Source: Squalus acanthias (Eukaryota). Taken from it: a stretch of 64,000 bases of DNA. Position numbers and translations under genes: made by a program. Where the stretch lies: the NCBI GenBank assembly GCA_030390025.1, contig CM059432.1:88476001-88540000 (forward strand), given 5' to 3'. The notes below the pieces were generated by a model. That model was given only the letters and a program-made list of their open reading frames with translations, searched no databases and was not told the origin of the DNA. Of this stretch, positions 20,409-39,483 are shown piece by piece. Position 1 is the first letter of the stretch, and each line of letters opens with the position of its first letter.

Positions 20409-21563
20409 AATGTTTCCACTTGTGGGGAAGAGCATAACTGGAGGCCATCAATATAAGATAGTCACCAAGAAATCCAATATGGAATTCAGAAGAAATTCGA
20501 GGAGATTTTCCGATGCAGCACTGGAGGCCTTGGTCCTGGGGGTTCAAAGACGCCGTCAGGTCCTCTACCCGCAGGGGGGCAGGAGGTCTTCAAGGCAGAG
20601 CAGCAGAAGGCAGTGGGAGGAGATCGCTGAAGCCAGCAGTACAACGAGTTTTGTCTCCGAGGCCTGGATCCAGTGCTGCAAAAAGTTTAATGACCTCATA
20701 CGAGTGGTCAAGGTGAGTGAATGCATCATCAAATGCCATATCCCATCATCTGCACCACAAGCCCCACACACTGCTCAATGCACCGCACCCCCATCACTCA
20801 CCTTCCAGCAATCTCTAGCAATCACCACTAATACCTCACAATCATAGCTCACATCACCCTAACACACTTAACACTGATTCAAGCCTCACACCCACATCAC
20901 ACACCTTGCACACACTGTCAGCTATTCAACCATGGCAGGCACATTACCCAAACGCATTGCACCACACTCACTGACACACTTCCCTTTCTCTTGCAGGCAA
21001 AAGTAGCTCATCACCGCCGGGAGCCGCAGCAGACGGGTGATGGTGAAGCCCGTCTGCAGAATCTGACGGAGCTGGAGGAAGCAACACTGGAGATCATTGG
21101 AGTGGCCATCACAGAGTCCGTGACGAGCGGGGAAGTTGAAAGCATTGCTGATGACGATGGTATGTTAAAACCTAATCCTTCTTCTCACATCCCACTTCCC
21201 CCTCATCCCATAATCTTTTCTCACTTACAAGCTGCTGATGGCTTTCCTGCCCTCCCCTCACCACAACCCGACCCTTGTGCATTTCTCCTTTCAGATACCC
21301 AAGAAGTCCCACCAGCACAGCCAGTCCCCGAAGTCATGGAGGAGGACAGTGAAGGAGGAGAAGACACACTGTCACTGCATCTGACACCCGTAGGCACCAG
21401 CTCAGAAAATAGCACTGCATGTACTTTTGAGGGTAGTATAGAGGCGGGATTTGCACGTGGTGAGTCACCGGGCATGAATGGGCTGCAGCGAGGCCAGGAG
21501 GAAAGGATAGCTTGGAGGCCAGTTCCCCGGAGGGTGAGTTCGCGCACAAGTTCTGCTGCACAC

Positions 21564-21847
21564 TGTTAGAACTTGTGACAGGTGTCCCATCGTATCTCTA
21601 GGCCATTGTCCGATTAGGAAAGGCTAATATTGGAGATTAGTCGGGACAATGGAAGTAGCAACTAGCAGACATGTTGGCTACCTCCCATGTGAGGTGCGAG
21701 TATCAGGTATTGGCCAGAACAATAGAAGCAGCCAAGCAGTGTCACATTAACTATCTGGGATTGTCTAGGTCGTCCTGTTCCTTTTGTAATATTAAGGTAG
21801 GATGTCAGGTTAAACTGATTAACAGTTAAACCATCAAGATGGCTATT
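21564..21847 (+). repeat. 5' LTR remnant (first ~284 bp only)
   Basis: Aligns with 35377-35680, with 14 substitutions counted by eye over about 267 bp plus small indels. It ends at a MITE insertion. Confidence 0.9.
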
Positions 21848-22395
21848 GGCCCAGAAATTTGACTCGGAGGCTTGCTGTGGGGGTAAGGATCGCGCGCGAT
21901 CTTACCTACCGCGCCTGCCGTTGTGTTTTGGGCCCACACGAACTTCTGGTCCTGGGCCTCTCCCTGGTGCCGGCGCGCAGTGTGTGCGTGTCCCAGAGGC
22001 GCAGTTAGTTCGATGCGACCTCTGGGATCACGTGGGCCATGGAGAGCCAATGGCAGCACACCATCTTTCATTCATAGATTTGACAGGAGACCTGTCAAAA
22101 CTATGAATACAAATTGCCCCCAAAAGAACAGCTAAACCTCAAATAATTTTTTTTTAAAAACCATCACATTAATAAAATAACTATAGTTAAATAAATTAAC
22201 CACTTTAAACAAAAATTTAAATTTTTGAAAAAATTTAAATTCTTTTTAAAAGTTATAAAAATAAACTTACCTTTCTTTAAAGTCTCTAAAAAAGATAAAC
22301 CTGTTGAAAAAAATTTAAAATAATACTTAATTAACTACTTACCTTGTTAAAAGGGGGTCTTACGCCTCCTTTCTTCATGTGTAAAATATTCCATA
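21848..22395. mobile_element. Truncated Harbinger-type MITE related to 44016-44772
   Basis: Starts GGCCCAGAAATTT after ATT. It shares CTGGGATCACGTGGGCCATGG, CTGTCAAAA.TATGAAT and the AT-rich core with the 44 kb copy. The right TIR is absent. Confidence 0.75.
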
Positions 22396-22488
22396 CTTTG
22401 GGTTATAAAAAGGGAGACGTTTGCGACTAAGTGAAATAAATTAGTGGACGGTCTCTCGGTCACAAGTTGAGTACAGGAGGTAGGTGCC

Positions 22489-24136
22489 ATGGCGGAAGAG
22501 TTAGTCAGTACTATTCAGAAATATGTGGACAAGAAGCTAGGAGCATGCAAATCATTAGTGTCTGAGGGAGACAGTCTGGGACAGATTACACAAAAGATTA
22601 CGGAAGGAAAAGAAAATTAAACGGCATGATTGGAAAGCCATGATTATTCTGTGGCAAACGCAGAAAATAACCAAATTAAAAGAAGAATATTAGAAGGACA
22701 AAAGGGATTGGCGGAGATGAACCAGAGTGAGGTTGAGAAGCAGTTAGAGGACAAAAAGCAGCATTGCGAGTCTCTGTCCGGATCACTTACTTATTTACAG
22801 ATTGAGATTGGTGATAAGATCAGAAAATTGATGCAGTGTGAGGCAGAGCTGGGAGAAAAGAAAGGGCTGGTAGAACAATACCAAAGGAAAACCGATGAAC
22901 TGAGTGCCGGCCCTAAGGGGTGTTCTTAAGCAACGAGTGGAGGACCGGAAAATTGCTGGAAAGGGAGACAATCATGATGTGTGTCAAAAATAGATTGGGG
23001 AGTTGAAGGATAAGTTTGAGCAACAACGGGGTCTGATGTTCGCTGTATCGGGGCGACGGGTTGGGGAACAGGAAGGTTCAGGAGGAGAAATAGAGTGCGA
23101 TGATTTCACATGGGCTGCTGGGAATATGAACGTAGAAGGGAAGAACAGGGCGACCTGGATGAGGGTGGTGAAGGCATGAGTGTAGAGGGAAAAGGGGTGA
23201 TGATGCCCCTTAAGGTAACAAAGAAAGACGCAAGAGGGGAGAATGTGGGAACCACCACAGTACCATAGCCCAGAATATCCCACAGATTAAGCCTAGAGAG
23301 GACCCGAGTCCCAGTATAACCGCAATACAACAAGTAGCTGACCTACAAAATTGCGATCAGGGGGAAAGAGTGAAATTTCTACTTCATGTGTGTCATCCAG
23401 ATGTGTATAAGACTCTTCCCGCCTCATTTAAGAAAGGCGCTGGACCTGGAGAGGGGTGAAAGAAGCGATGTGGAAAGCCACTGGTCATGGGTCGGTGTCC
23501 GATCGCAATGCCCTAAAAGGCCTGCTGGAATGTAAGCAGGAGGCCAGTGAGTCCCCGAATGTGTTTGCAGACCGATTATGGAATCACCATCAGGCAGCCT
23601 TTCCCGGACGCGATTGTGATAGTGACGATCGGTTCGAAGTAAGGCAATGGATTCAATATCTGATTGGGGCCGTGCATGAAAAGTATAATGCAATTAACGA
23701 TATTTACGATCCCTCCAATGAAAACCACAATGAGGAGTGGGTAAGGGGGTGGATGGACCGGAAGTGGGAACAAGTAAAATCCCAAAAGGCAAAGATCCAT
23801 GTGATCCAGCCCCCGGGTGTACATCCCATGGTGCCCCCATGGAGGAACGAGGGGCACCCACAGTATGGGCCCCCCGTCCAACACTCCACTAAAACTCAGA
23901 CTCGGTCAGCTCCAGCGTGTTGGAACTGTGGGCAAAGGGGCCATTTTTCCCAGCAATGTCCAAATGGGGGATCTAGCTGGCCTCATGGGAAGGGCCTGAT
24001 AGGAAGAGGGACCGATGAGGTGGACTGTTTGCGGAAAGAGATTGAGGAATTAAAACGATATATGAGGGAATCCGGGCAGGTGGGGCGGGTGTACGCCACA
24101 GGGCCCACGCCGAGTAATGCTCCAAGTCCACTCTGA
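22489..24136 (+). pseudogene. gag: gag, with frameshifts and stops
   Basis: Kozak GCCATGG at 22489; coiled-coil segment 22630-22929; capsid-like KQEASESPNVFADRLW; zinc knuckle CWNCGQRGHFSQQC; TGA at 24134-24136. Confidence 0.85.
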
Positions 24137-26816
24137 CGGTTGGCGGCCACGCACCCGGTACAGGGATCTGTGAGTGAGTGGCATTCAGACCCCATACGGC
24201 AGGCCCCATGTAACCGCAACAGTGGGGGTAGCTCCCAAATGTTGTTGGTCGATACCGGGGCGACCCACATGTGTGTGTGGAGAGGAATTCCCCAGACATT
24301 CGCCTATAAAAGAGTGATAGAATTAGGAGGCTTTGGGGGAGGAATGGATCACGGTCTGTTAGTAGAAACCAGCCTGACCGTGGGCACCCAGTTGTTTGGA
24401 CAAAGGGACACAGCGAGGAATCAGATGGCATATTAGGAGTGGATTGGCTCCGGAAACATGATATTGTGTTAGACATGATTAATCAATGTCTGTGGCGGGG
24501 GAATACGGACATGGGAGGAAATGTAGTAGTCCGACCCAAAGGGAAAATTTGGTCCGTGGGGGTAAGGGTTGAATACCGTCTCGACCAATTTCTCAGGCAC
24601 AATTTGCTTGAGGTTGAGGGGGTGATCAACAGGCTACATGTTGGGCCAGACATAAAAATTAGTGTGGGAGGATGGACCGGGAAGTTGATATACAAGGCCC
24701 AGATCCCATTCGGCCCACTAGACAGTACCGGTTCCCGAAGGAAGCAGAGGGACCTGTGGCACAGGTCATCGAGTCCTTGGTAACACGGGGTGTTGCGTAA
24801 GACGGCCAGTACCTGTAATCCCCCCCACCTGGCTGGTCCAGAAACCCGATGGGGCCTGGCGGTTGATTACAGAGCAGCCAATTGTCATTCCCCAACCGTG
24901 GCGCCAACAGTCACCTCTTCCCCGGAGGGTCAAATGCGTACCTCGGCCACATTAAAGGTCTTCACAGTACTGGATGTCTCAAATGGCTTTTGGTCTGCCC
25001 CCCTCACTGAACCATGTCAATATAAATTTGCATTTACCCTGCAGGGCCAACAGTAATGTGGACATGCCTACCACAGGGCTTCCACAATTCCCCGTCCATC
25101 TTTTACCAAATGTTACAAGACCAATTGGCGCACTTTTCGTGGAGAGAGGCCCTGGTCCAATATGTGGACGATATCCTACTCCACACTGGACTCCATGCAG
25201 GACCATGTGGAACTGCTCCAAGAATTGTTGACATTGATCACCCAGAGTGGGCTGAAATTAAACCCCAAAAATGCACAGATAGCACAACCCAATGTAACCT
25301 ATCTGGGCATTACCCTATCGCACGGGTCTAGGAAAATTGCTGAGGATAAGATAGACGTTGTAAATGGTATCCCAATACCTCTTGATGTCCCATCGTTGCG
25401 ATGATTCCTCGGGTTGGTAGGATGTTTATTGAGGACTTTGTGGCCCGAACGGCCCCTTTGTATACATTACTTAGGAAAGGCGCTCCCTGGGAGTGGGGGC
25501 CCTTGCAGGAACAAGCAGTGGTACAGGTTAAACAGGCCGTCACACATGCACCAGCATTAAAAACTCCGGAAGCAGGGAAATCCTTCTCCATGGAGGTAGC
25601 TACCAACGATGTATCCCTGTCAGTGGTCCTTTTGTAGGAAAGACATGGGACGCTGGTTCCTGTGGCATACGCATCCCACGGCCTATCGCCTGTGGAACAG
25701 ACGTATAATATGTGAGCGACACCTACTGGCTGTGTACTGGGCCACTAACAAGTTCGCATACATTACTGGTTTGGAGGAGGTGGTCCTCCTCACTGCTCAT
25801 ACTCCCACTGATTTGTTACTGTCCGGGTTGTTGCGGGATGGAACAGTATCCAGTAACAGGATTGTGCGATGGACGTTAGGTCTGCAAGAACGTAACCTGA
25901 TAGTCAAACATACGGCCACCCCCTTGTATTTAGCAGCTGGTCTTCTGATATCAGGAAAACCGCACAAGTGCACTTTGGTGATACCAGAACCGGGTGAAGG
26001 GCCGTTTGGCACCCACCCTATTCCTGACTCATTGCATGTCTTTGTGGACGAGTCTAGCAGCCTTACACCAGAGGGACCTGTGTCAGGATTTGGAGTTTAT
26101 GCACCCAAGGAGGACATAGGAAAATCAGTTACATTGTTGGGAGGGCGATTGGCACAGCAAGCTGAACTGGCCGCTGTAGCCTACGTCCTTCAAATGCCAG
26201 ATGGGGAAAAACCTTTAACTATCTTCTTTAATAGTCCCTTTACCTGCCTATCCCTAACCGATTATCTACCCATCTGGGAAAAGAGAGGCTTTGCCTCCAC
26301 TGATGGCAAACCACTCCCCACGGCTGGATTACTGCAATATGTCCTTAGCCAACCGAGGGAGCGGCAGCATCCCGTGGCCATAGTGAAGGTTAAAGCACAT
26401 TCTAAAAATACCCCCTGGGCAGATGAGAACAGAAAGACTGATGAATTGGCCAGAGGCTTCCGGGAGAGTGGGGAGGAATGGACAGCCCTGACCATGGCTA
26501 AGGCTCCCGTTACTCCGCTGCAGCCTACCCATCGGAATAGCCCGATGTTGGTGGAAATGCAGAGCCAGGACCCTTGGATTGCAGCAATCAGGCAAGCCAT
26601 GAAGTGCACCGTGTCATGGCCCCCAGGGTGTCCCAAAAAGAGGGAGGACATCACATGGGAACCAGATCAATTACTACGGTTCCAAAACCAGGTGGTAATC
26701 CCAGACCCTCTACGGGCCGAAATTGTCCAATGGACACATGTGTCCAGTGGACATCAGAAGGGAAAGGGTTTAGCACAGAGATTATCCCAAAATATATGGT
26801 GGCCTAACATAAGAAG
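24137..26816 (+). pseudogene. pol: pol 5' part: protease, RT, tether RNase H, RNase H, integrase HH
   Basis: LLVDTGAT and ILGVDWL (protease). LDVSNGFWS, KFAFT, LPQGFHNSP, YVDD at 25161-25172 (RT). VPVAYAS / CERHLLAVYWA / RIVRW (gypsy-like RH). VFVDESS / AQQAEL / KVKAHS (retroviral RH). THVSSGH...WWPNI (IN). Confidence 0.92.
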
Positions 26817-27289
26817 GACCTGGGGGTCCTTGTACATGAAACACAAAAAGTTACCATGCAGGTATGCTAACAGAGGCCGGTGTCGGGAGCAACAGGAGAG
26901 AACAGTGAGTATTTAAACTCACTTTTGCAGGCTTTTTTACAGAGGCTTACCAATCTCACAGACCGGTGGCGGCGTTCCAGTGCCACGTCACGATTCAAAA
27001 AATGACGCGGGTAAAAGGAAGCAGCTGATTGGGTGAGTACGGCCAGGTGAGTATTTATACTACTCTATAGTTAGACAGTTAAGGTTAATAGTTTATAAAG
27101 TTTAGAAGGTCTTAATTTTTGTGGTTATAGTTTAGAAGGTCTTAATTTTTGTGGTTATAGTTTCTAAGGTCTCTGTTGTGTAGCGGGGAGTGCTAGTAAA
27201 CAAGGGCCCTTGAGTATATTATTTAATTGTAGTGTAATTAGTGGTATTGATTTGATTTAATTTAATTTAAATTAATTAAAGGGTAAGTC

Positions 27290-28168
27290 ATGACAGCACA
27301 GCTTGGCCCTGTGGCATGCTCCTCCTGCACTATGTGGGAAATCAGGAACACTTCCTGTGTCCCTGACAACCATGTGTGCGGGAAGTGTATCCAGCTGCAG
27401 CTACTGGCAGACCGCATTCACGATGCTGAGGACATTGTGGATAGCACGTTTAATGAGTTGGTGACACCGCAGGTAAAGGCTGCACAGGCAGGAAGGGAAT
27501 GGGTGACTGCCAGGCAGAGTAGTAGGCGCAGGCAGGTAGTGCAGGGGTCCCCTGTGGCCATCCCCCTCTCAAACAGATATACCACTTTGGATATTGTTGA
27601 GGGAGATGGCTTATCGGGGGAAGGCAGCAGCAGCCAACTTCCTGGCAGCATGGGTGGTTCTGCTGCACAGGACGGGAGGAAAAAGAGCGGGAGAGCTACA
27701 GTGATAGGGGATTCTATTGTAAGGGGAATAGATAGGCGTTTCTGCGGCCACAAACGAGACTCCAGGATGGTATGTTACCTCCCTGGTGCAAGAGTCAAGG
27801 ATGTCTCGGGGCAGCTGCAGGGCATTCTGGAGGGGGAGGGTGAACAGCCAGTTGTCGTGGTGCATATAGGTAGCAAAGATATAGGTAAAAAATGGGATGA
27901 GGTCCTAAAAGCTGAATATAGGGAGTTAGGAGGTCAATTAAAAAATAGGACCTCAAAGGTAGTAATCTCAGGATTGCTACCAGTGCCACGTGCTAGTCAG
28001 AGTAGAAATAGAAGGATATTTCAGATGAATACGTGGCTAGAGGAATGGTGCAAGGGGGAGGGATTCAAATTCCTGGGACATTGGAACCAGGTTCTGGGGG
28101 AGGTGGGACCAGTACAAACTGGACGATTTGCAGCCTGGGCGGGACCGGGACCGGGACCGATGTCCTAG
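27290..28168 (+). pseudogene. CR1 ORF1: N-terminal Cys-rich zinc finger plus SGNH/GDSL esterase-like domain
   Basis: CSSC...CGKC; VIGDSIVR, LPGARVKD, VHIGSKDI (GxND block); frameshifted near the C-terminus. Confidence 0.85.
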
Positions 28169-28261
28169 GGGAGTGTTTGCTAGTGCTGTTGGGGAGGGTT
28201 TAAACTAAAATGGCAGGGGTTTGGGAACCTGTTCAGGGAGACAGAGGAAAGGGAAGCAAGG

Positions 28262-31177
28262 ATGGAAACAAAAGACAGGAAGGAGAAAAGCAAAAGTGGA
28301 AGGCAGAGAAATCAAGGGTGTAAATCAAACAGGGCTACAGTAAATAATAATTCTAAAAGGACTAAGAGTGTTAAAAAAACAAGCCTGAATGCGAGGAGCA
28401 TTAGTAATAAGGTGGATGAATTAGCTGCGCAAATAGATGTAGACGGATATGATATAATTGGGATTACGGAAACATGGCTCCAGGGTGACCAAGGCTGGGA
28501 ATTCAACATTCAGGGGTATTCAATATTCAGGAAGGACAGGCAAAAAGGAAAAGGAGGTGGGGTAGCATTGCTGGTTAAAGAGGAGATTAAAAGAATAGTA
28601 AGGAAGGATATTACCTCTGATGATGTGGAATCTGTATGGGTAGAGCTGAGAAATACCAAGGGGCAGAAAACGTTAGTGGGAGTTGTATACAGACCCCCAA
28701 ACAGTAATGCGGAGGTTGGGAATGGCATTAAACGGGAAATTAGAGACGCGTGCAATAAGGGCTCAGCAGTTATCATGGGTGAATTTAATTTACATATAGA
28801 TTGGGCTAACCAAATTAGTAACAATACTGTGGAGGAGGAATTCCTAGAGTGTATACGGGATGGTTTTCTGGACCAATATGTCGAGGAACCAACTAGAGAT
28901 CAGGCCATCTTAGACTGGGTATTATGTAATGAGAAAGGATTAATTAGCAATCTTGTTGTGCGAGGCCCCTTGGGGAGGAGCGATCATAATATGATAGAAT
29001 TCTTCATTAAGATGGAGAGTGAAGTAGTTGACTCAGAGACTAGGGTCCTGAATTTAAATAAAGGAAACTACGATGGCATGAGGCGCGAGTTGGCTAGGAT
29101 GGATTGGGGAGCGTTACTTAAAGGGTTGATGGTGGATAGGCAATGGCAAACATTTAAAGATTGCATGGATGAACTACAGAATTTGTTCATCCCTGTTTGG
29201 CATAAAAATAAAACAAAAAAGGTGACTCAACCATGGCTAACAAGGGAAATTAGGGATAGCATAAGATCCAAGGAGAGGTCATATAAATTGGCCGGAAAAA
29301 GCAGCAAACCTGAGGATTGGGAACAGTTTAGGATTCAGCAAAGGAGGACAAAGGGATTAATTAAGAGGGGGAAAATAGAATATGAGAGTAAGCTTACAGG
29401 GAACATAAAAACTGACTGTAAAAGCTTCTATAGATATGCGAAGAGAAAAAGATTGGTGAAGTCAAGTGTAGGTCCCTTGCAGTCAGAATCAGGGGAATTT
29501 ATAATCGGGAACAAAGAAATGGCAGACCAATTAAATACATACTTTGGTTCTGTCTTCACAAAGGAGGACACAAATAACCTCCCAGAGATGTCGGGGAACA
29601 AAGGGTCTAATGAGAGGGAGGAATTGAATGAAATCAATATTTGTCGGGAAATGATGTTAGGGAAATTGACAGGATTGAAGGCCGATAAATCCCCAGGGCC
29701 TGATAATCTACATCCTAGGGTACTTAAGGAAGTGGCCCTAGAAATAGTAGATGCATTGCTGGTCATCTTCCAAAATTCTATAGACTCTGGAACAGTTCCC
29801 ATGGATTGGAGGGTAGCGAATGTAACCCCACTATTTAAAAAAGGTGGTAGAGAGAAAACGAGGAATTATAGACCGGTAAGCCTGACATCGGTAGTGGGGA
29901 AAATGCTAGAGTCCATTATAAAAGATGTAATAGCTGAGCATTTGGAAAACAGTGACAGGATCAGACAAAGTCAACATGGATTTACAAAAGGTAAGTCATG
30001 CTTGACTAATCTACTGGAATTTTTTGAGGATGTAACTGGTAGAATAGATAAGGGAGAACCAGTGGATGTGGTGTATTTGGACTTTTAGAAGGCTTTCGAT
30101 AAGGTCCCGCATAAGAGATTAGCATGCAAAGTTAAAGCACATGGGATTGGGGGTAAGGTACTGACTTGGATAGAGAACTGGTTGGCAGACAGGAAGCAAA
30201 GAGTTGGAATAAATGGGTCTTTTTCTGAGTAGCAGGCAGAGACTAATGGGGTACCGCAGGGATCGGTGCTAGGACCCCAGCTATTCACAATATATATTAA
30301 TGATCTAGCCGAGGGAACTAGATGTAATATCTCCAAGTTTGCAGACAGCACAAAGCTGGGTGGGCGTGTGTGCTGTGAGGAGGATGCAGAGAAACTCCAG
30401 TATGATTTGGACAGGTTGGGTGATTAGGCAGATGCATGGCAGATGCAGTATAATGTGAATAAATGCAAGGTTATCCACTTTGGTGGCAAAAACAGGAAGA
30501 CAGATTATTATCTGAACGGCAATAGATTGGGAAAAGGGGAAGTGCAACGAGACCTGGGTGTCCTTGTGCACCAGTCGCTGAAAGTAAGCATGCAGGTGCA
30601 GCAGGCGGTTCAGAAGGCAAATGGTATGTTGGCCTTCATAGCGAGAGGATTCGAGTACAGGAGCAAGGATGTCTTGCTGCAGTTGTACAGGGCCCTGGTG
30701 AGACCACACCTTGAGTATTGTGTGCAGTTTTGGTCACCTTATCTGAGGAAGGATGTTCTTGCCATGGAGGGAGTGCAGCGAAGATTCACCAGACTGATAC
30801 CTGGGATGGCAGGAATGACGTATGAAGAGAGATTGGGTCAATTAAGCTTATATTCGCTAGAGTTTAGAAGAATGAGAGGGGATCGCATTGAAACTTATAA
30901 AATTCTAACAGGACTAGACAGACTAGATGCAGGAAGAATGTTCCCGATGGCGGGGGATTCCAGAACCAGGGGTCACAGTCTAAGGATAAGGGGTAAGCTA
31001 TTTAGGACTGAGAGGAGGAGGAATTTCTTCACCCAGAGAGTGGTGAACCTGTGGAGTTCTCTACCACAGAAGGCAGTTGAGGCCAATTCATTAAATATAT
31101 TCAAGAAGGAGTTAGATATATTTCTTAAGGCTAAAAGGATCAAGGGATATGGGGAGAAAGCAGGGACAGGATACTGA
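28262..31177 (+). pseudogene. CR1 ORF2: APE endonuclease plus reverse transcriptase, with premature stops
   Basis: NARS, GITETW, VYRPPN, SDHN (APE); [28 protein letters not shown] (RT); TAG at 30086-30088. Confidence 0.92.
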
Positions 31178-31789
31178 ATTTGGATGATCAGCCATGATCT
31201 CATTGAATGGCGGAACAGGCTCGAGGGGCCGAATGGCCTACTCCTATCTTCTATGTTTCTATCGGTACAGCAAGTAATCAAAAAGGCAAATGGAATGTTG
31301 GCCTTTATTGCAAGGGGGTTGGAGTATAAAAGCAGGGAAGTCCTGCTACAACTGTACAGGGTATTGGTGAGACCACACCTTGAGTACTGCGTACAGTTTT
31401 GGTCTCCTTATTTAAGGAAGGATATACTTGCATTGGAGGCAGTTCAGAGACGATTGACTAGGCTAATTCCAGAGATGAGGGGGTTGACTTATGAAGAAAG
31501 GTTGAGCAGGTTGGGCCTATACTCATTGTAATTTAGAAGAATGAGAGGTGATCTTATTGAAACATATAAGATTCTTTGGGGGCTCGACAAGGTAGATGCA
31601 GAGAGGATGTTTCCCCTCGTGGGGAAATCTAGAACTCGGGGGCATAGTTTTAGAATAAAGGGTCGCCCTTTTAGAACTGAGATGAGGAGGAATTTCTTCT
31701 TTCAGAGGGTCGTAAATCTGTGTAATTCTCTGCCCCAGAGAGCCGTGAAGGGTTATGGGGAGTGGGCAGGGAAGTGGCTTTGAGCCCAA

Positions 31790-32624
31790 GAAAATATGAA
31801 ATCTGATCAAGGTTCCCATTTCACAGGTCAGGTGATGAAAGAAACTCTTAAATTGTTGGGGATAAAGTCATGCTTTCAGATCTCGTATAATTCCCAAGCA
31901 GCAGGAATAGTGGAACGAATGAACCGAACCCTTAAAAATCGGTTAGTGAAAGCCCTCGCTGATTATGGGAAGGAGTGGGACAGCCTGTTCCCCCTCCTTC
32001 TAATGGCTAGTAGGGCAATCCCCTCAAAGAGTACAGGGTTTAGCTGGGAGGAGAATGCGGCTGCCAGAAATGTGGGTGGCTGGTTGTCTGTTCGGCCCCC
32101 AGGAGGAGGGAGTCTGCATGAATCAAAGAATGCAATTGCTCCAAAACCATTTGGAGCAGGTGTAGCGGTCCGCAGCCCGTAACTTGGGTATGGCCAGAAT
32201 ATGGTCCCCTGGGTGTTCGTCAGCCGATTCTGAAGGTTATAAGGTGGGAGACCAGGTGATGACACGGGTCAATCATCAAGAGGGGAAATGGAACCCAAAG
32301 TTCGAGGGTCCTTACCCGATCATTGACAAATTATGTCCACAAGTATATAAAATACACTGTCAAGGGTCCAAGCAGAAAAATGCAGACCAGTGGGTCCATG
32401 TTAACCAGCTGAAACCGTATAAAGGTCCGGTATCTAAGGGACAAGTAGACAGTTTAAAAATGATCATGCTGGATAATGCCGATGAATGGTGGCCACATGA
32501 TGAACCAATGGCCATTACCGACAGGGAGCTGCGGCCCCGTCCAACTACCCAGCCCGCGTGGGTACTGTCCGGTGACTATGTGGCCCCGGGACCCTCTCCC
32601 TCACCCCAGTTATCCTCACACTAG
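31790..32624 (+). pseudogene. pol: pol 3' part: integrase core (D,D35E second half) and GPY/F C-terminal domain
   Basis: SDQGSHFT...GIVERMNRTLK; KFEGPYPIIDK...WVHVNQLKPY. Confidence 0.9.
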
Positions 32625-32709
32625 CCAAAACAGGACCGGAGGCGAGGCCAGAAGAAACAGCAAACAGACTGATAAGTAGCCAGATACTGTGTTTGATCAC
32701 TTCCCAGGT

Positions 32710-35239
32710 ATGGCGAGAATCGTTGGGTGGATGCATATGATAATCGAATTAGGCATGCTTCAAATGTGTCACTCAGCAGTGATTAAGGGTTGGTGCCGGA
32801 GTGGCCCTCAAGATGAACGGTATAAATATAATCCGACCAGAGAAGAAGAAAGGGTGAGAGAAATCGAGGAATGACTGAGTCGACGGTGGAACTGCCGCTG
32901 GGAGGTGGCAAGCCCTGGTTACATGGAAGAACTGTTGTATGGGAATCGAACTATTGGAGCACGTGTGGAGGAAGGGAATGAGGTTCGGGTAAAATGCATT
33001 TGTAGCAGTAATGGAACAGCGGTGGGGATCCGGTGACAGTGGTTTCAAGACCAATTTGGCACGTCTGCCCCTCCTGTAGGGGATGTCGGGGTGCCCTATA
33101 AAGGGAAAATATCCCGACAATCTGATGGAAAGAATGGCCTGGTACTAATTCAAATGTTAAACTGGCCCCAGTTCTGGAATAGGCACAGTGGTAACGTCCG
33201 TTGTGAACCGGGTGATGACAGCGCATATGGCAGCTCTCATGTGAGGTTAGAGGCCATTGGGAAACCAGGTAAAAACGCTGTCAGAAGTCCGGGTCCCCCT
33301 TGTCCCATGTTACTCCCTAATCCACAAACAAATGGGTTGGACGTGATGGAATCAGGCCATTTGTTATATAATGATATGCGCTTTGAAATTGTTCCGGTTG
33401 TTTTTAATTTAACCTCTCTGCATATGCCTGACAGATTGGGCCACAGTAGCTGCCTTAATTTGCCGAGCCTCATGTTAAATGAAGTGGTAGGGGACGCGCA
33501 GGCGAGGAAGCAAAGGACAGATGGAGGAGCCCTGACTCAGACATGGGTGAAGGGCCGAAGGCCCAACACAAACGAGGTTTAACCGAATGGGTGGGGATAG
33601 GAGCCACCGCCGGCCTGGCCGGTCTGAATCATATAGATGTCAAATCTATGTGGGAACATGACAAAGTCATGTGGAGGCAACTGGAGGGGCTTTTAACCAA
33701 ATTAAATGACCAAAGCGGGGACCTAATCCATGAACAAGGTAAAACGCTGTTATCCACCCAAGAGATAGTAGTGGCCATGCAGTCCATCTCGGATAAGGTC
33801 AATGAGATTAATGGGGAAAACAACCAAGAGTATGCACAGCAGAACATCTCCAAAGCAGTCACCTGTAGTATGTATGGAAACTTTGTGCTTACCTTACTAC
33901 AAAAAGGATTGTCTGACCTCGAATCTAATCATATTCCTGCCTTTGTCAAGAATCACCACTTGGCCACCTAGCTAGGAACCAATAAGACGGAAGAAGAATA
34001 TAAACGCATCAGGCGGCACGGTCTGGCCTCTCTCGCCCCTCGGGCCCACTCTCAGGGCAGTGTCGGCCGGGTCCCAGTGATATTGGTAGTCCCGATCATC
34101 GTGAACTCTACAGCCCCTCCCGTGTGGTTGTATAAGGTAGAATGGGGCAACACGGTGGCATAGTGGTTAGCACTGTTGCCTCACAGCGCCAGGGACCCGG
34201 GTTCGAATCCGGCCTCGGGTGACTGTCGGTGTGGAGTTTGCACATTCTCCCCGTGTCTGCGTGGGTTTCCTCCCACAGTCCAAAGATGTGCGGGTTAGGT
34301 TGATTTGGCTATGATAAATTGACCCTTAGTGTTAGGGGGATTAAATACGTGGGGTTACGGGAATAGGGTGGGGTATGTGTTGGTGCAGGCTCGATGGGCC
34401 GAAATGGCCTCTATCTGCACTGTGGGGATTCTGTGAATCCATAGGAGTCATTGAACATTACGATGACGATACTATCTTTAAGGAATTTCGGGACCATCCT
34501 CGATGGTTGATTATTAGAAAGAGCACGAGGTTAGCCCCAGACTTGGAGTGTTGCTGACAAGTTGGAAAGGAGTGGGTGTGTAGGTGTGATGTGTATCAGC
34601 ACACTACACCCGCGTGTGGGTTCACATTGGACGAGCCGATGGAGTCCTGGTCAGGTGAGAACTGCCTACGTGGGCAGGGGAAGGTACTGCGTTACAACCA
34701 GTGCCTCACACCTACATCACGGGGAAACCCTCTGCCCGCTTAATAGCCCTATATTCTGTCTCTCCCCAGTTGAACCGGTCAAATTCAGAGGTTAAATGTT
34801 ATTACCAGTTCACCTGCACTACGTTACAGAAATACAATTGGAGCTGCCCCATCAGGAGGCCCGAAGGTCAGTGGTCCACCCGATTCCCCCCCTATCGCTT
34901 AGTTTGAAGTCAATCCTTCAACATACAACTACCTCGCAAGAACATTTGGTTCGTATGCAACAGGATAATAAAGATATCGAGAAAGGAATCAAAACCTTAG
35001 GAGACCACAAATGGTGGGAAATGGTATATAATGTGGGGCAATCCGTCTGGGCTTGTATGCTTTCTTATGCTTTCTTAGTTGTTCGATTTGTGTTGACCAT
35101 CACTATCATTATTACTTTGATACATATACGCGGCGTGTGTCGCCGGTTGGAGGATCAGCTGCGGGTCTGGCAGGCTCTGTCTATTTATGGGGGCCTTTTG
35201 GAGGGTCCCCATGAGTATGAAAAGCTCATACGCAATTAG
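32710..35239 (+). pseudogene. env: env-like class I fusion glycoprotein, degenerate and SINE-interrupted
   Basis: N-terminal signal-like MARIVGWMHMIIELGMLQMCHSA; basic site QHKR then fusion peptide GLTEWVGIGATAGLAGL; heptad region; Cys-rich region; WWE then TM segment LSYAFLVVRFVLTITIIITLI; short tail; located just upstream of the PPT. Confidence 0.85.
34144..34434 (+). mobile_element. HE1-like V-SINE inserted in env
   Basis: A-box TGGCATAGTGG, B-box GGTTCGAATCC, V-domain GTGGAGTTTGCACATTCTCCCCGTGTCTGCGTGGGTTTCC and a CR1-like tail. TSD GAAT (34140-34143, 34435-34438). Removal restores LYKVESIGVIEH. Confidence 0.9.
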
Positions 35240-35366
35240 CAAAATCCGCAAAATTATTAGTAAATAAGTTGGTACTGCGCAATTTGTAAGTTTGTAGACT
35301 CAAGGTGACCAGGCTGAGAGCTGAACGCAAAAAAAAATTAACCAGAGTTTGAAACTAAGGTCCGTT

Positions 35367-35376
35367 AGGGGGGAAA
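35367..35376 (+). promoter_or_regulatory. Polypurine tract
   Basis: AGGGGGGAAA immediately 5' of the 3' LTR TG. Confidence 0.85.
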
Positions 35377-36052
35377 TGTTAGAACTTGCTTCTGTGTCGA
35401 ACTTGCTTCTGGTGTCCCATCATATCCCTAAGCCATTGTCTGATTAGGATAGGCTAATATTAGAGATTAGTCAGGACAATGGAAGTAGCAACTAGCAGAC
35501 ATGTTGGCTACATCCCATGTGAGGTGCAAGTATCAGGTATTGGCCAGAACAATGGAAGCAGCCAAGCAGTGTCACATTAACTATCTGGGATTGCCTGGAT
35601 CGCCCTGTTCCTTTTGTAATATTAAGGTAGGATGTCAGGTTAAACTGATTAATAACAGTTAAACCATCAAGATGGCTATTATGTCAAGTCTGGAGGTTTG
35701 GTGAGAAGGAACCTCGCTTCAATATACATTCTGGGCATCATGTGATATGACTCACGTTAAAGGGGGAGGGTACTTTAAGGAGGCTGGAAGGTTTTTGAGC
35801 ATGTGACAGATGACAAAAGAGGGATACAAAAGAACAGGTAGTTAGAGCTCACGGGACGGTCGGAAGTCCAACACCTACGGAGGCCAAGCTTGATCAGCTT
35901 GGGTCTGCAGGAAACCAGGTTGTATGAGTCTATTGTATAACCGTAATAGTTATTATACTATTGGTGTCTGAGTAATAAACTTGCATTTGGACAATATACT
36001 CGAACCTGACTCACGAGGAATCATTTAATTGAGTTTAAGAGATTTCCTTACA
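35377..36052 (+). repeat. 3' LTR (676 bp)
   Basis: TG...CA termini, AATAAA at 35974-35979, followed by TSD CACAC. Confidence 0.92.
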
Positions 36053-36396
36053 CACACAACTCAGATGATGACCTCAATGAGGCGGCCTTCAGATGAAGGG
36101 TGATGGGCAGAAATACTAGGTGCAATGGCAAGCCTGCTAGAGACACTCATGTCAGTGTCAAGGAACATGGAGGAGTCCGGCTCCAACATTGCACGGGGCT
36201 TTGCACAAAGCTTGGAGTCCATGATTTCCAGGATGAAAATGATGGGCGACACCATGAGAGACCTTGTGGATCCAACCATGATGCTGCTTGTGATGGGCAA
36301 TGTCGCAACTTCCACTGCAGCACAGGCGGAAGTGACCCAACATCTCAGTGCTGCAGTGGAAGCTCAGACTTCTGACATTGTGGCTGGGTTTACGAG

Positions 36397-36558: not shown

Positions 36559-37175
36559 TTTACGAATGTGGAAAGGGACTTGCAGGGTCTCACAGTACTC
36601 CAGCAATCGGTCCCCCAACAGATGGCTAGGAATGAGGCGCTGCCCCGGGGGACTGGCAGTGGCTCCATGGAGCAAGAACCTGCTGTCCTCTCTCAGGAAG
36701 CCAGCCTTCATCCTCCCACCACTGCCACTCCGCCAATGCCCTTGTTGCTGCCTGTTATCCAGCCAGCCCAGACTGCGCTGCCCATGCCGAGGTGGTGCTG
36801 TATACAGCCGGGTCTTCTCGGCCCAGAGCTGCTCGAAGTCATCCTGCAAGGCCATCCGCAGTTTCCCCCCCCCCCCCCCCCCGCCGCCCCCCCACCACTG
36901 AAAGTCAGCAGCCTTCCCCCAGCCAAGATGCAGCCACTGGGGGAGCACTTCATAGGAGCACTAGAGTAGAAAAGCAACATGAAAGACAGACACTAAGGGA
37001 ATGTACAAAAGTGATTAGTTGACATTGTTGGTTTGATTTGGAATTGATAAATTTATAAATTATGTTTGGAATGTTTGTTTTCTGGTGGCTCTCATTTCAG
37101 CTTTGATGCTGCAATATTCCATGACAGGGATGGTAAGAAGGGGAAGTGGTGAGCAACAGGGATCTGGGGTTTCAT

Positions 37176-38619
37176 TCACTGGAATCGAAGTCTGATGAGG
37201 TGCTCATGGACAGCCCGTCCAGAATGGGGATCTGCTGCCTGCCTCCTCCCTTCCTCCTCCTCCTCCTCCTCCTCCTCCTCCTCTTCCTTTTCCTCCTCCT
37301 CCTCCTCTTCCTTCTCCTGAGGTGGTCCCGGAACCTGTGGTGGCAAGGGCAGCACCCTCATGATGGCCAAGTTATGGAACATGCAGCAGGCTACCACGAA
37401 TTGGGACATCCGCTCCGGTGAATACTGGAAGGCTCCTCCAGAGCGGTCAAGGCAGCGGAACCTTTGCTTTAGCACCCCGAAGCTCTGCTCGATGAGGTTC
37501 CTTGTGGCAGCATGGCTCTCATTACATGATTGCTGGCCACAAGTGGTGGGCTTGTAGAGGGGAGTCATCAACTAGGTGCAGAGCGGATAGCCCATGTCTC
37601 CAAGCAGCAAACCTTGGGTTTGACCTGGTGGCTGGAAGATTGCTGGCACAGTGGACTGGCGCAGGATGAAGGCATCGTGACTGCTGCCAGGATCCCGGCA
37701 TTCACCATCATGATGCGCTGAGCGTGCTTGCACACCAACTGCACATTAAGTGAGTGGTACCCTTTGAGGTTATGGAACATCTCAGGATTGATATGCAGTG
37801 CCCGCAAAGCCACATGTGTGCAGTCGATGGCACCCTGCACCATAGGGAAGCCCAATATCCAGGCAAAGCCACGTGTGTGCTCATTCTGCTTCAGAGAGAA
37901 GACAATAAAGTCCCTTCTCCTGGAGTTTTTTTTTATTCGTTCCTGGGATGTGGGCATTGCTGGCAAGGCCAGCATTTATTGCCCATCCCTAATTTTCCTT
38001 GAGAAGGTGGTGTTGAGCTGCCTTCTTAAACCGCTGCAGTCCTTGTTGTGAAGTTACTTCCACAGTACTGTTAGGGAGGGACTTCCAGGATTTTGACCCA
38101 GTGACGATGAAGGAACGGCGATATATTTCCAAGTCAGGATGGTGTGTAACTTGGAGGGGAACTTGCAGGTGATGGTGTTCCCATGCACCTGCTGCCCTTG
38201 TCACAGAGCCTCTGTGACCTCCCGGATGCAGCGATGAATGGCAAATTGGGAGATGTTTGCTATGTCTCCTGCTCCAAACTGGAAGGATCCGGTGGTGAAA
38301 AAATTGAGGGCAACAGTGACCTTTAGGGCCATTGGCAGTGCCATTGTTACCCTACTCTGAGGCTGCAGGTCTGGTTGCAGGAGGTAGCAGAGTTCTGTGA
38401 CCATGTCTTTGGTGAAGCGGAGCCTCCTAATACACTGCTCTTGACTTAAGTACAGGTAGAAGTGCTCTTGGAACACCCTAGGTGAGTAAGGCCTCCTGCT
38501 GAGAGCTCTCCTGCCCCTGCTCCTCCTCCCTCTGCGAGCATCTTGTCCTTTTCTTCGCTGCCTCGCTCCATCTCCCTGTAATACTCGAGTGCGTGGGGGA
38601 CTGCATGCAGAGCCCCCAT
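37176..38619 (-). pseudogene. HARBI1-like transposase interrupted by a LINE 3' fragment
   Basis: [60 protein letters not shown] and a poly-Glu tail. Confidence 0.9.
37926..38202 (-). mobile_element. LINE 3' end fragment (same family as ~4135-4390)
   Basis: SFIVTGSKSWKSLP...LQRFKKAAQHHLLK, AATAAA and a poly-A tail. Confidence 0.7.
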
Positions 38620-39483
38620 GACTGGGAGCAAGTGGTGTGAGCAGAACCCTTTTAAATGAGAATGAAGGCCTTCTCCACTTGCAGCATCACTCTCTTTCAC
38701 CTCAGCAACTTTAAACTCTAGAAAGCTCCAAACAGTTGCACAAACTTAAACAGAGCCAGCAGAAATGGAAAAGCAAATCAGCTGCAAGTTGTTGCTGATC
38801 CTTTAAAGAGCACTGGTGGGGGGTCCTTTCTGCTGCTGAACACATAGTCAACTGGTTGTGATTAGGAGAGGGTGTTAAATGGAGCGGCGACGTCCAAAAT
38901 GGCAGATCAACGTTGCACACTCATTGACATCACGGCTTGCCTCATTTCCATTTCTGTAGCAAACGCAGACAATGGCAGCGCTGCCGACCTGCCCAAAATG
39001 GCGGCCTACGCGGGACCTGCGGGAGCGGGTGAAAGCGAGGTGGCGCCATTTTTTCTTCCTCTCGGTTCGGGAGCAATTTTATCCACAGGGTCTTTGGATA
39101 CAATGCTACTAGCTGGGTAATCAGCAAGCCCAGTCAATAGCATAGCTTCCACAGTTCGACGGCTCCAGATCAGCTTTGAGACTGGTTTAAAGTTGCAATT
39201 CCTAGACGTTATTTTGGGGAAAGGGTGAAAGCAGGAGTTAAGTAGGTGCTGTGCTAATAAGACACGCCTGTTTGAAAGTCTGGTTTTAGCGCACAATTTT
39301 GAGGCTAATTGGTGATTACCATGATTTAACCGTGCCTGCAGGTGCTAAAACAGACACCGACAGGTTTAGCACTCGAGCACTGATTAGAAGCAATTTTCGT
39401 GAAGCAGTATATGCAGCCTCCGTGCAATCACTTCCACTGAAGGTGTGGAGTGCGCTGGCTGACACACAACGGAATGTTTCAGG

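Follow-up and report, generated by a model that had tools for sequence, protein, structure and literature searches.

A decayed shark provirus with a probable paramyxovirus/pneumovirus F-type envelope protein and intact homologs in three other sharks

Organization of the provirus

The stretch of DNA analysed here (64,000 nucleotides of Squalus acanthias contig CM059432.1, hereafter the window) holds, in a genome of 3.7 Gb, a two-LTR provirus that extends from position 21564 to 36052 and carries an env gene at 32710–35239 (Table 1). The element sits in a host repeat, one copy of which runs on across both flanks with a 4-nt overlap. ORF fragments adjoining that repeat at 37100–38700 presumably belong to a Harbinger-type transposase. 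An Rfam search of the window returned two sub-threshold matches only.

The charged N-terminal part of gag, considered as a possible counterpart of the optional smc gene of lokiretroviruses, found no match in a Pfam scan. Within pro-pol, the protease motif DTGA (24251–24262) and the reverse transcriptase (RT) motifs LPQG and YVDD are recognizable, and matches to PF17919 and PF17917, both below cut-off, precede PF00075, an arrangement that corresponds to a tether plus RNase H (dual RNase H). The LINE-like insertions that split the integrase are presumably of CR1 type, and some 270–290 bp of the sequence found in sister copies is absent where they lie. The TGA that ends gag (24134–24136) is common to all seven copies compared (the window copy and all six sisters examined), with pro-pol in frame behind it, and is likely a readthrough signal; gammaretroviruses use TAG as their gag–pol readthrough stop. 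The primer-binding site is gone from the window copy. It is complementary to tRNA-Asn in three sister copies (L053, 5996–6017; L059, 4556–4577; L057, 5327–5348, minus strand), where it lies 3 nt inside the LTR end. A 3′ motif of tRNA-Asn with 298 matches genome-wide forms a tandem array with a spacing of ~1.8 kb (C18, ~2.14–2.29 Mb). The 550-bp repeat in the 5′ LTR recurs inside the 3′ LTR of copy L065, in L046 and in L063.

Table 1. Features of the provirus, in window positions.
Feature	Position	Strand	Remarks
Left target-site duplication, CACAC	21559..21563	.	second copy at 36053-36057
5′ LTR remnant	21564..21847	+	begins TG
550-bp repeat	~21848-22398		replaces primer-binding site and 3′ part of 5′ LTR
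gag, broken	22490..24136	+	charged coiled-coil-like N-part and CCHC zinc knuckle (PF00098, E 6e-6)
pro-pol, broken	24137..26814	+	protease, RT, tether and RNase H, integrase zinc domain
LINE-like insertions splitting integrase	26815..31788	+	~5 kb
Integrase C-terminal part	31789..32624	+	SH3-like domain (PF24626, E 4e-8)
env start (ATG 32710) and probable signal peptide	32710..32775	+	predicted from hydropathy of homolog
Probable Ig-like N-terminal domain	32875..33261	+	candidate receptor-binding head, Env residues ~56-184
F2-like strands and helix	33319..33513	+	structural match to pneumovirus F begins at homolog-model residue 204
Basic cleavage site, decayed	33564..33575	+
F1, first part	33576..34142	+	fusion peptide, heptad A, start of beta domains; one stop
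SINE within env	34144..34434	+	missing from sister copies
F1, second part	34438..35239	+	Cys-rich domains, heptad B, segment rich in W, TM and short tail; carries two stops and a frame break
Polypurine tract	35367..35376	+
3′ LTR	35377..36052	+	TG...CA; K2P 0.068 vs 5′ remnant (279 sites)

The env gene and its decay

By tblastn, the window env matches residues 1–753 of a 754-aa protein of Heterodontus francisci in four collinear pieces at 80–86% identity, a correspondence that at the sequence level is far beyond chance. It is collinear with three intact shark proteins in all (739–754 aa, 74–86% identity), to which we return below. Its stop codon lies at 35237–35239.

A first-pass annotation of this DNA had described the gene from the cleavage site onward, and the translation contains what it listed: a basic site ending at 33575 with a Gly/Ala-rich peptide behind it, a PIIV...LYKVE block reaching 34142, its continuation SIG resuming at 34438 past an insert, an APDLECC...WVC block, and, in that order, a second heptad, WWE and a TM segment. 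Its figure of about 455 post-cleavage codons once the insert is taken out agrees with our count (189 + 66 + 201, or ~456; the intact homologs have 464). It was also right to treat this insert as a removable SINE: because seven sister copies continue uninterrupted at the site and a 4-nt duplication stands on both sides, the SINE is a later insertion. The extent of the damage had been understated: besides the SINE, env bears five in-frame stops, two of which lie upstream of F2, and its reading frame is broken twice (near 33520 and near 34635). The annotation had also missed the probable Ig-like head and the intact homologs. The cleavage site, decayed in the window copy, reads R-x-[K/R]-R in all three intact homologs, in each of which it immediately precedes the hydrophobic fusion peptide.

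About nine sister copies have 85–94% DNA identity to the window copy, every one examined being broken, and a six-frame search of the genome with the F1 piece gave at least 151 matches. Between the window copy and eight sisters dN/dS is 0.59–1.03, as in nearly neutral decay; judged by its sequence, the window copy is a dead provirus of the ordinary kind that yields no functional protein. LTR divergence in five sister copies (K2P 0.026–0.056) can be set beside that of the window copy. With the rate of 2.2e-10 per year that Han (2015; PMC4422223) took for sharks, these values would date the window copy to about 155 My and the sisters to 59–127 My, the rate being an assumption; at a mammalian rate the ages would be tenfold lower. 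A search of sequencing runs with the stretch recorded 21 runs under nine organism codes and no RNA run; 20 share part and two share at least half of its words, small shares being no evidence. An older env sublineage is also present in the genome (L046–L047, L062 and L015, on C20 and C15), with saturated synonymous sites and 70–75% protein identity; two of its loci are without a matching pol in the 10 kb examined.

Structural similarity to F proteins

Structure prediction was carried out on the intact Heterodontus homolog with AlphaFold2 and a 38-sequence alignment. The model has a mean pLDDT of 58 and a pTM of 0.37, with higher values in the core and values under 50 at residues 12–193. All matches listed by Foldseek against the PDB are F proteins of paramyxoviruses and pneumoviruses, the best being hPIV3 F (E 3.0e-8), with large whole-chain rmsd (8–34 Å) and low TM-scores. 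F proteins likewise occupy ranks 1–5 in VIA-align, led by hMPV F (Z 10.3, rmsd 5.8, 277 aligned, residues 204–612), and foamy Env scores lower (Z 7.6, rmsd 7.1, 254 aligned). HIV gp41 (Z 8.5, rmsd 9.3, 141 aligned) was set aside as a helical-hairpin match of the sort that unrelated coiled coils beside it also gave. In the BFVD the best match is unnamed, and the named ones (paramyxovirus F, baculovirus F and lispi/arlivirus glycoproteins) come ahead of foamy Env, with a walleye epsilonretrovirus Env at rank 16 and feline foamy Env at rank 31. Atlas features fall in the clusters Baculo_F (0.93) and Fusion_gly (0.90). Two walleye epsilonretrovirus Env models (Q9WHI8 and A4GTG3) match the F-type model at E 2e-7 and 2e-5 with large rmsd, and these Envs may be F-related too.

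No such relationship emerges at the sequence level. Pfam Fusion_gly (PF00523) scored above cut-off in none of 47 sequences (four window pieces, three intact proteins and 40 further homologs); in Pfam scans neither the env pieces of the window nor the homologs matched an Env family or TLV_coat, and the homologs did not match Foamy_virus_ENV (PF03408); and comparisons of the Env with the PDB by sequence and by profile yielded nothing significant and no F. The link between this Env and F is thus a structural one. It extends to the layout, as the homolog model and the window alignment have heptad A, Cys-rich beta domains, heptad B and TM in this order within an F1 of ~450 aa. Compared with the paramyxovirus and pneumovirus F proteins (PF00523; hPIV3 1ZTM, hMPV 7SEM, RSV), this Env agrees in the predicted fold of F2 and the F1 core, in F1 size, and in the succession of fusion peptide, heptads, Cys-rich domains and TM. 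It differs in its low identity (9–14%), in the missing Pfam match, in being encoded by a retrovirus, and in having ~170 extra N-terminal residues, probably with an Ig fold.

The first-pass annotation had proposed a Mononegavirales-type fusion protein instead of a retroviral SU/TM, and the best structural matches bear it out. The AlphaFold and Foldseek comparison that it suggested, here made on the intact homolog, places F on top, with foamy Env lesser and gamma-type TM not the best match. A gamma-type SU/TM Env was rejected on two further grounds: neither CX6CC, whose absence the annotation had correctly observed, nor CXXC occurs in any of the three intact homologs, and TLV_coat gives no match. 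Where the annotation had set F against foamy Env as alternatives, the ranking did favour F, but the contrast itself is less sharp than assumed, since foamy Env is F-related according to the title of PMC11468914.

The N-terminal head

F2 starts near residue 198–204, leaving ~170 residues between the signal peptide and F2. Folded alone (pLDDT 56), this part resembles the Ig domains found in KIT, SYG-2 and CSF1R (Z at best 8.5, with rmsd 2.7 and 100 aligned), at a level barely above the tool's stated background. Foldseek with the same model gave V-type domains at E 2e-3 or weaker and none at E ≤ 0.001, and atlas features place it in Ig clusters (0.84). We regard the domain before F2 as probably Ig-like.

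Related Envs from frogs and sharks (P0008, P0010, P0011, P0012, P0014 and P0040) have a common F2 start and differing N-terminal modules, one of them with a weak V-set match (E 0.045), and one Env has no module at all. The alignment of P0011 begins at its own residue 23, opposite residue 198. Because the N-terminal parts of relatives differ or are missing, the predicted Ig-like head fits a swappable attachment module, a role that we infer from this variation.

Placement among retroviruses

RT comparisons were made with P0065, a sister copy that has the RT core in one open frame; they are by-eye counts on this one sequence. Against the reference sequences in the supplement of Wang and Han, P0065 is identical to SnRV at 69 of 134 positions (~51%) and to Loki-Bsp at 45 of 134 (~34%). 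It has the blocks PTVAS-x-PE and LPQGFH-x-SP in common with SnRV, whereas the loki sequences compared have PFGY. The best PDB matches of this RT are foamy (136 bits), MLV (93) and Ty3 (77), and the best for integrase is foamy integrase; the closest pol bears the automatic name NYNRIN-like. From these sequences the element is probably an SnRV-clade virus whose Env works like that of lokiretroviruses. An SnRV-like lineage, CmiERV lineage I, has been described in the elephant shark (Han, 2015; PMC4422223). In SnRV itself the Env tail is 136 residues long and accessory ORFs are present (PMC12193657), whereas in the element analysed here the Env tail is ~32 aa and ~140 bp separate env from the LTR.

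The first-pass annotation had pointed to lokiretroviruses, and we considered a lokiretrovirus new for cartilaginous fishes. According to PMC7947760, lokiretroviral Env is F-related and combines a signal peptide, a basic site, a fusion peptide, a coiled coil and a TM, as here; its blocks in the Wang and Han supplement are similar by eye to those of the window Env, both pols have dual RNase H (though this is common to all retroviruses), and the NYNRIN-like name of the closest pol points the same way, closeness to CGIN1/NYNRIN being a mark of lokiretroviral integrase. Yet in the one loki Env compared from its start F2 follows straight behind the signal peptide, unlike in the probably Ig-headed Env here, the RT has LPQGF and not PFGY and is closer to SnRV, its ranking of PDB matches is headed by foamy, and Wang and Han (2020; PMC7947760) detected lokiretroviruses in none of six chondrichthyan genomes, two of which belong to species where this env is present. 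We regard this assignment as very unlikely. Hardly better placed, though still a shade less improbable, is the reading of the element as a foamy virus, or a foamy-like ERV, whose foamy Env was shortened. This would accord with the PDB matches of RT and integrase, with the tRNA-Asn primer site of the sister copies, which NviFLERV-1 likewise has, and with the presence of foamy Env, another F-related retroviral fusogen, among the structural matches. However, the PDB contains no SnRV-type RT, so that foamy is only the nearest proxy there. Frog and shark FLERVs, for their part, form a cluster. Foamy viruses typically have a Gag without a CCHC knuckle and express Pol separately, while this element has the knuckle in gag and a pol in frame past one shared TGA. 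Its Env, moreover, has no PF03408 match, ranks F above foamy Env, and differs from the latter in N-terminus and genome plan.

Taking Env and backbone together, the window very probably contains the dead provirus left by a shark retrovirus of the SnRV clade, the Env of which was a class I fusogen of the paramyxovirus/pneumovirus F type with an extra Ig-like head. The live virus would have made a 754-aa precursor consisting of signal peptide, Ig-like head, F2-like part and furin site, followed by the fusion peptide with heptad A behind it, the Cys-rich beta domains, heptad B and lastly the TM with its short tail. By analogy with F biology, Env would form a trimer primed by furin, in which heptad A extends and then folds back onto heptad B, bringing the membranes to fusion. 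More tentatively, the Ig-like head might have served as a built-in receptor-binding module.

Intact homologs in three shark orders

Of 1168 candidates in a protein search two matched, one of 754 aa from Scyliorhinus torazame (XP_072333160.1) and one of 739 aa from Chiloscyllium punctatum (GCC29952.1). The cluster of the Scyliorhinus protein also includes P0007, the 754-aa protein XP_067889054.1 of Heterodontus francisci. A HMMER scan gave 40 matches at E ≤ 0.001, those named among the 20 examined coming from frogs, sharks and a ray; apart from the intact trio, relatives in this half have 16–34% identity.

The three proteins represent as many shark orders. Their alignment spans 754 columns without a single internal gap; they are 85–88% identical and retain 19 of 19 Cys. 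Variable sites are fewer in the F1 ectodomain (53 of 405) than elsewhere (89 of 334; p 4e-6), a bias that dead copies do not have. The amino-acid changes between them are conservative (mean BLOSUM62 +0.18 to +0.31, whereas dead copies give −0.28 to −1.07), and 2247 codons contain no stop, compared with 30 stops in 5497 codons of nine dead copies. At the protein level, then, an open frame is retained across distant hosts under purifying selection. In a 28-row tree the trio forms a clade (UFBoot 93) inside the family of the window genome, with the topology (Heterodontus,(Scyliorhinus,Chiloscyllium)) (UFBoot 99), which is the host order; the dead copy closest to the trio (UFBoot 63) lies on C1 near 145.63 Mb.

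These observations lend themselves to two readings, between which the evidence is finely divided. One, to which we give an even chance, is that a single insertion was captured in the ancestor of galeomorph sharks and that its env survives as a host gene represented by the three proteins. The gap-free alignment, the conserved Cys, the constrained F1 ectodomain, the open frames, the clade in host order and the single record per species in 90% clusters (a frog family has 16 members) all speak for it. The other, tentative but a serious contender, is that each of the three stems from its own young insertion of a virus lineage that changes slowly and either passed from shark to shark or repeatedly reinfected their germlines, with nothing co-opted. 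The virus by itself, to judge from its sublineages, conserved Env strongly under purifying selection (dN 0.16–0.18 while dS is saturated), so protein conservation alone is no proof of a host role. Trees lacking the trio clade are not rejected either: AU tests rejected none of three alternatives (p 0.095–0.23, with 5000 resamplings, below the program's advice), and quartet counts give the host order when any of the seven close copies serves as outgroup, yet each of the three older relics yields the reverse grouping. Presence is patchy as well, the searches run having found an intact homolog in three species only although further galeomorph genomes are annotated, and the window genome has no intact close copy among 59 candidates scored. 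Evidence for capture comes from protein sequences. Against independent insertion, in turn, only ~0.07–0.08 substitutions per site separate the Heterodontus protein from the family node, a value similar to dead-copy decay, and a young active family would be expected to leave several near-identical intact copies, where one per species is seen.

If capture is the right reading, the window copy would be a dead sister of the captured shark gene, and the captured env might fuse cells or serve in antiviral defence by blocking receptors. It may well be, with the balance about even, that an SnRV-clade retrovirus with an Ig-headed F-type Env entered shark germlines and that one env was captured before horn, carpet and ground sharks split. 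The co-opted foamy env of geckos (PMC6669660) offers a precedent for an F-related env that was co-opted and is under purifying selection; that case is backed by synteny and dN/dS, whereas the shark trio is known from protein sequences.

Relation to published envelope genes

Published examples of F-related Env come from lokiretroviruses, foamy viruses and invertebrate errantiviruses. The F-type reading is right and of a known kind, and what is new are the SnRV backbone, the probable Ig head and the candidate co-opted shark gene. Within the literature searched, the coverage of which is partial, neither the three shark genes nor an SnRV-like virus with an F-type Env was found described; the sources compared include 10.1101/2021.11.23.469661, PMC13524379, PMC9040795, PMC5512871, 10.1101/2024.03.17.585361, PMC10587355 and PMC12583693. 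An F-type Env on an SnRV-like backbone would add one more retroviral lineage with F-related Env and supports those scenarios of Wang and Han that make F-type Env ancestral and the gamma/beta SU/TM a later arrival.

Syncytin-like env sets from sharks (10.64898/2026.05.06.723177; PMC12813294) comprise intact env ORFs proposed to be captured, as for our trio. Both screens required an immunosuppressive motif plus CX5-7C or CX6-7C, which this Env type lacks; syncytin-based screens would exclude F-type env by design. Entries of 2265, 2262 or 2220 bp are absent from the env list of PMC12813294. In egg-laying sharks, the published screens could detect gamma-type Env alone, and for such sharks the intact proteins put a name to a candidate, open to testing, for a fusogen captured long ago. 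Were capture true, this would be one of the most ancient retroviral envelopes to be co-opted and, foamy viruses aside, the first of F type, hidden from syncytin-based screens. The same Squalus genome also contains several remoter families (L012 and L024–L039) with the same Env type at 37–49% identity, some of them with a related pol upstream.
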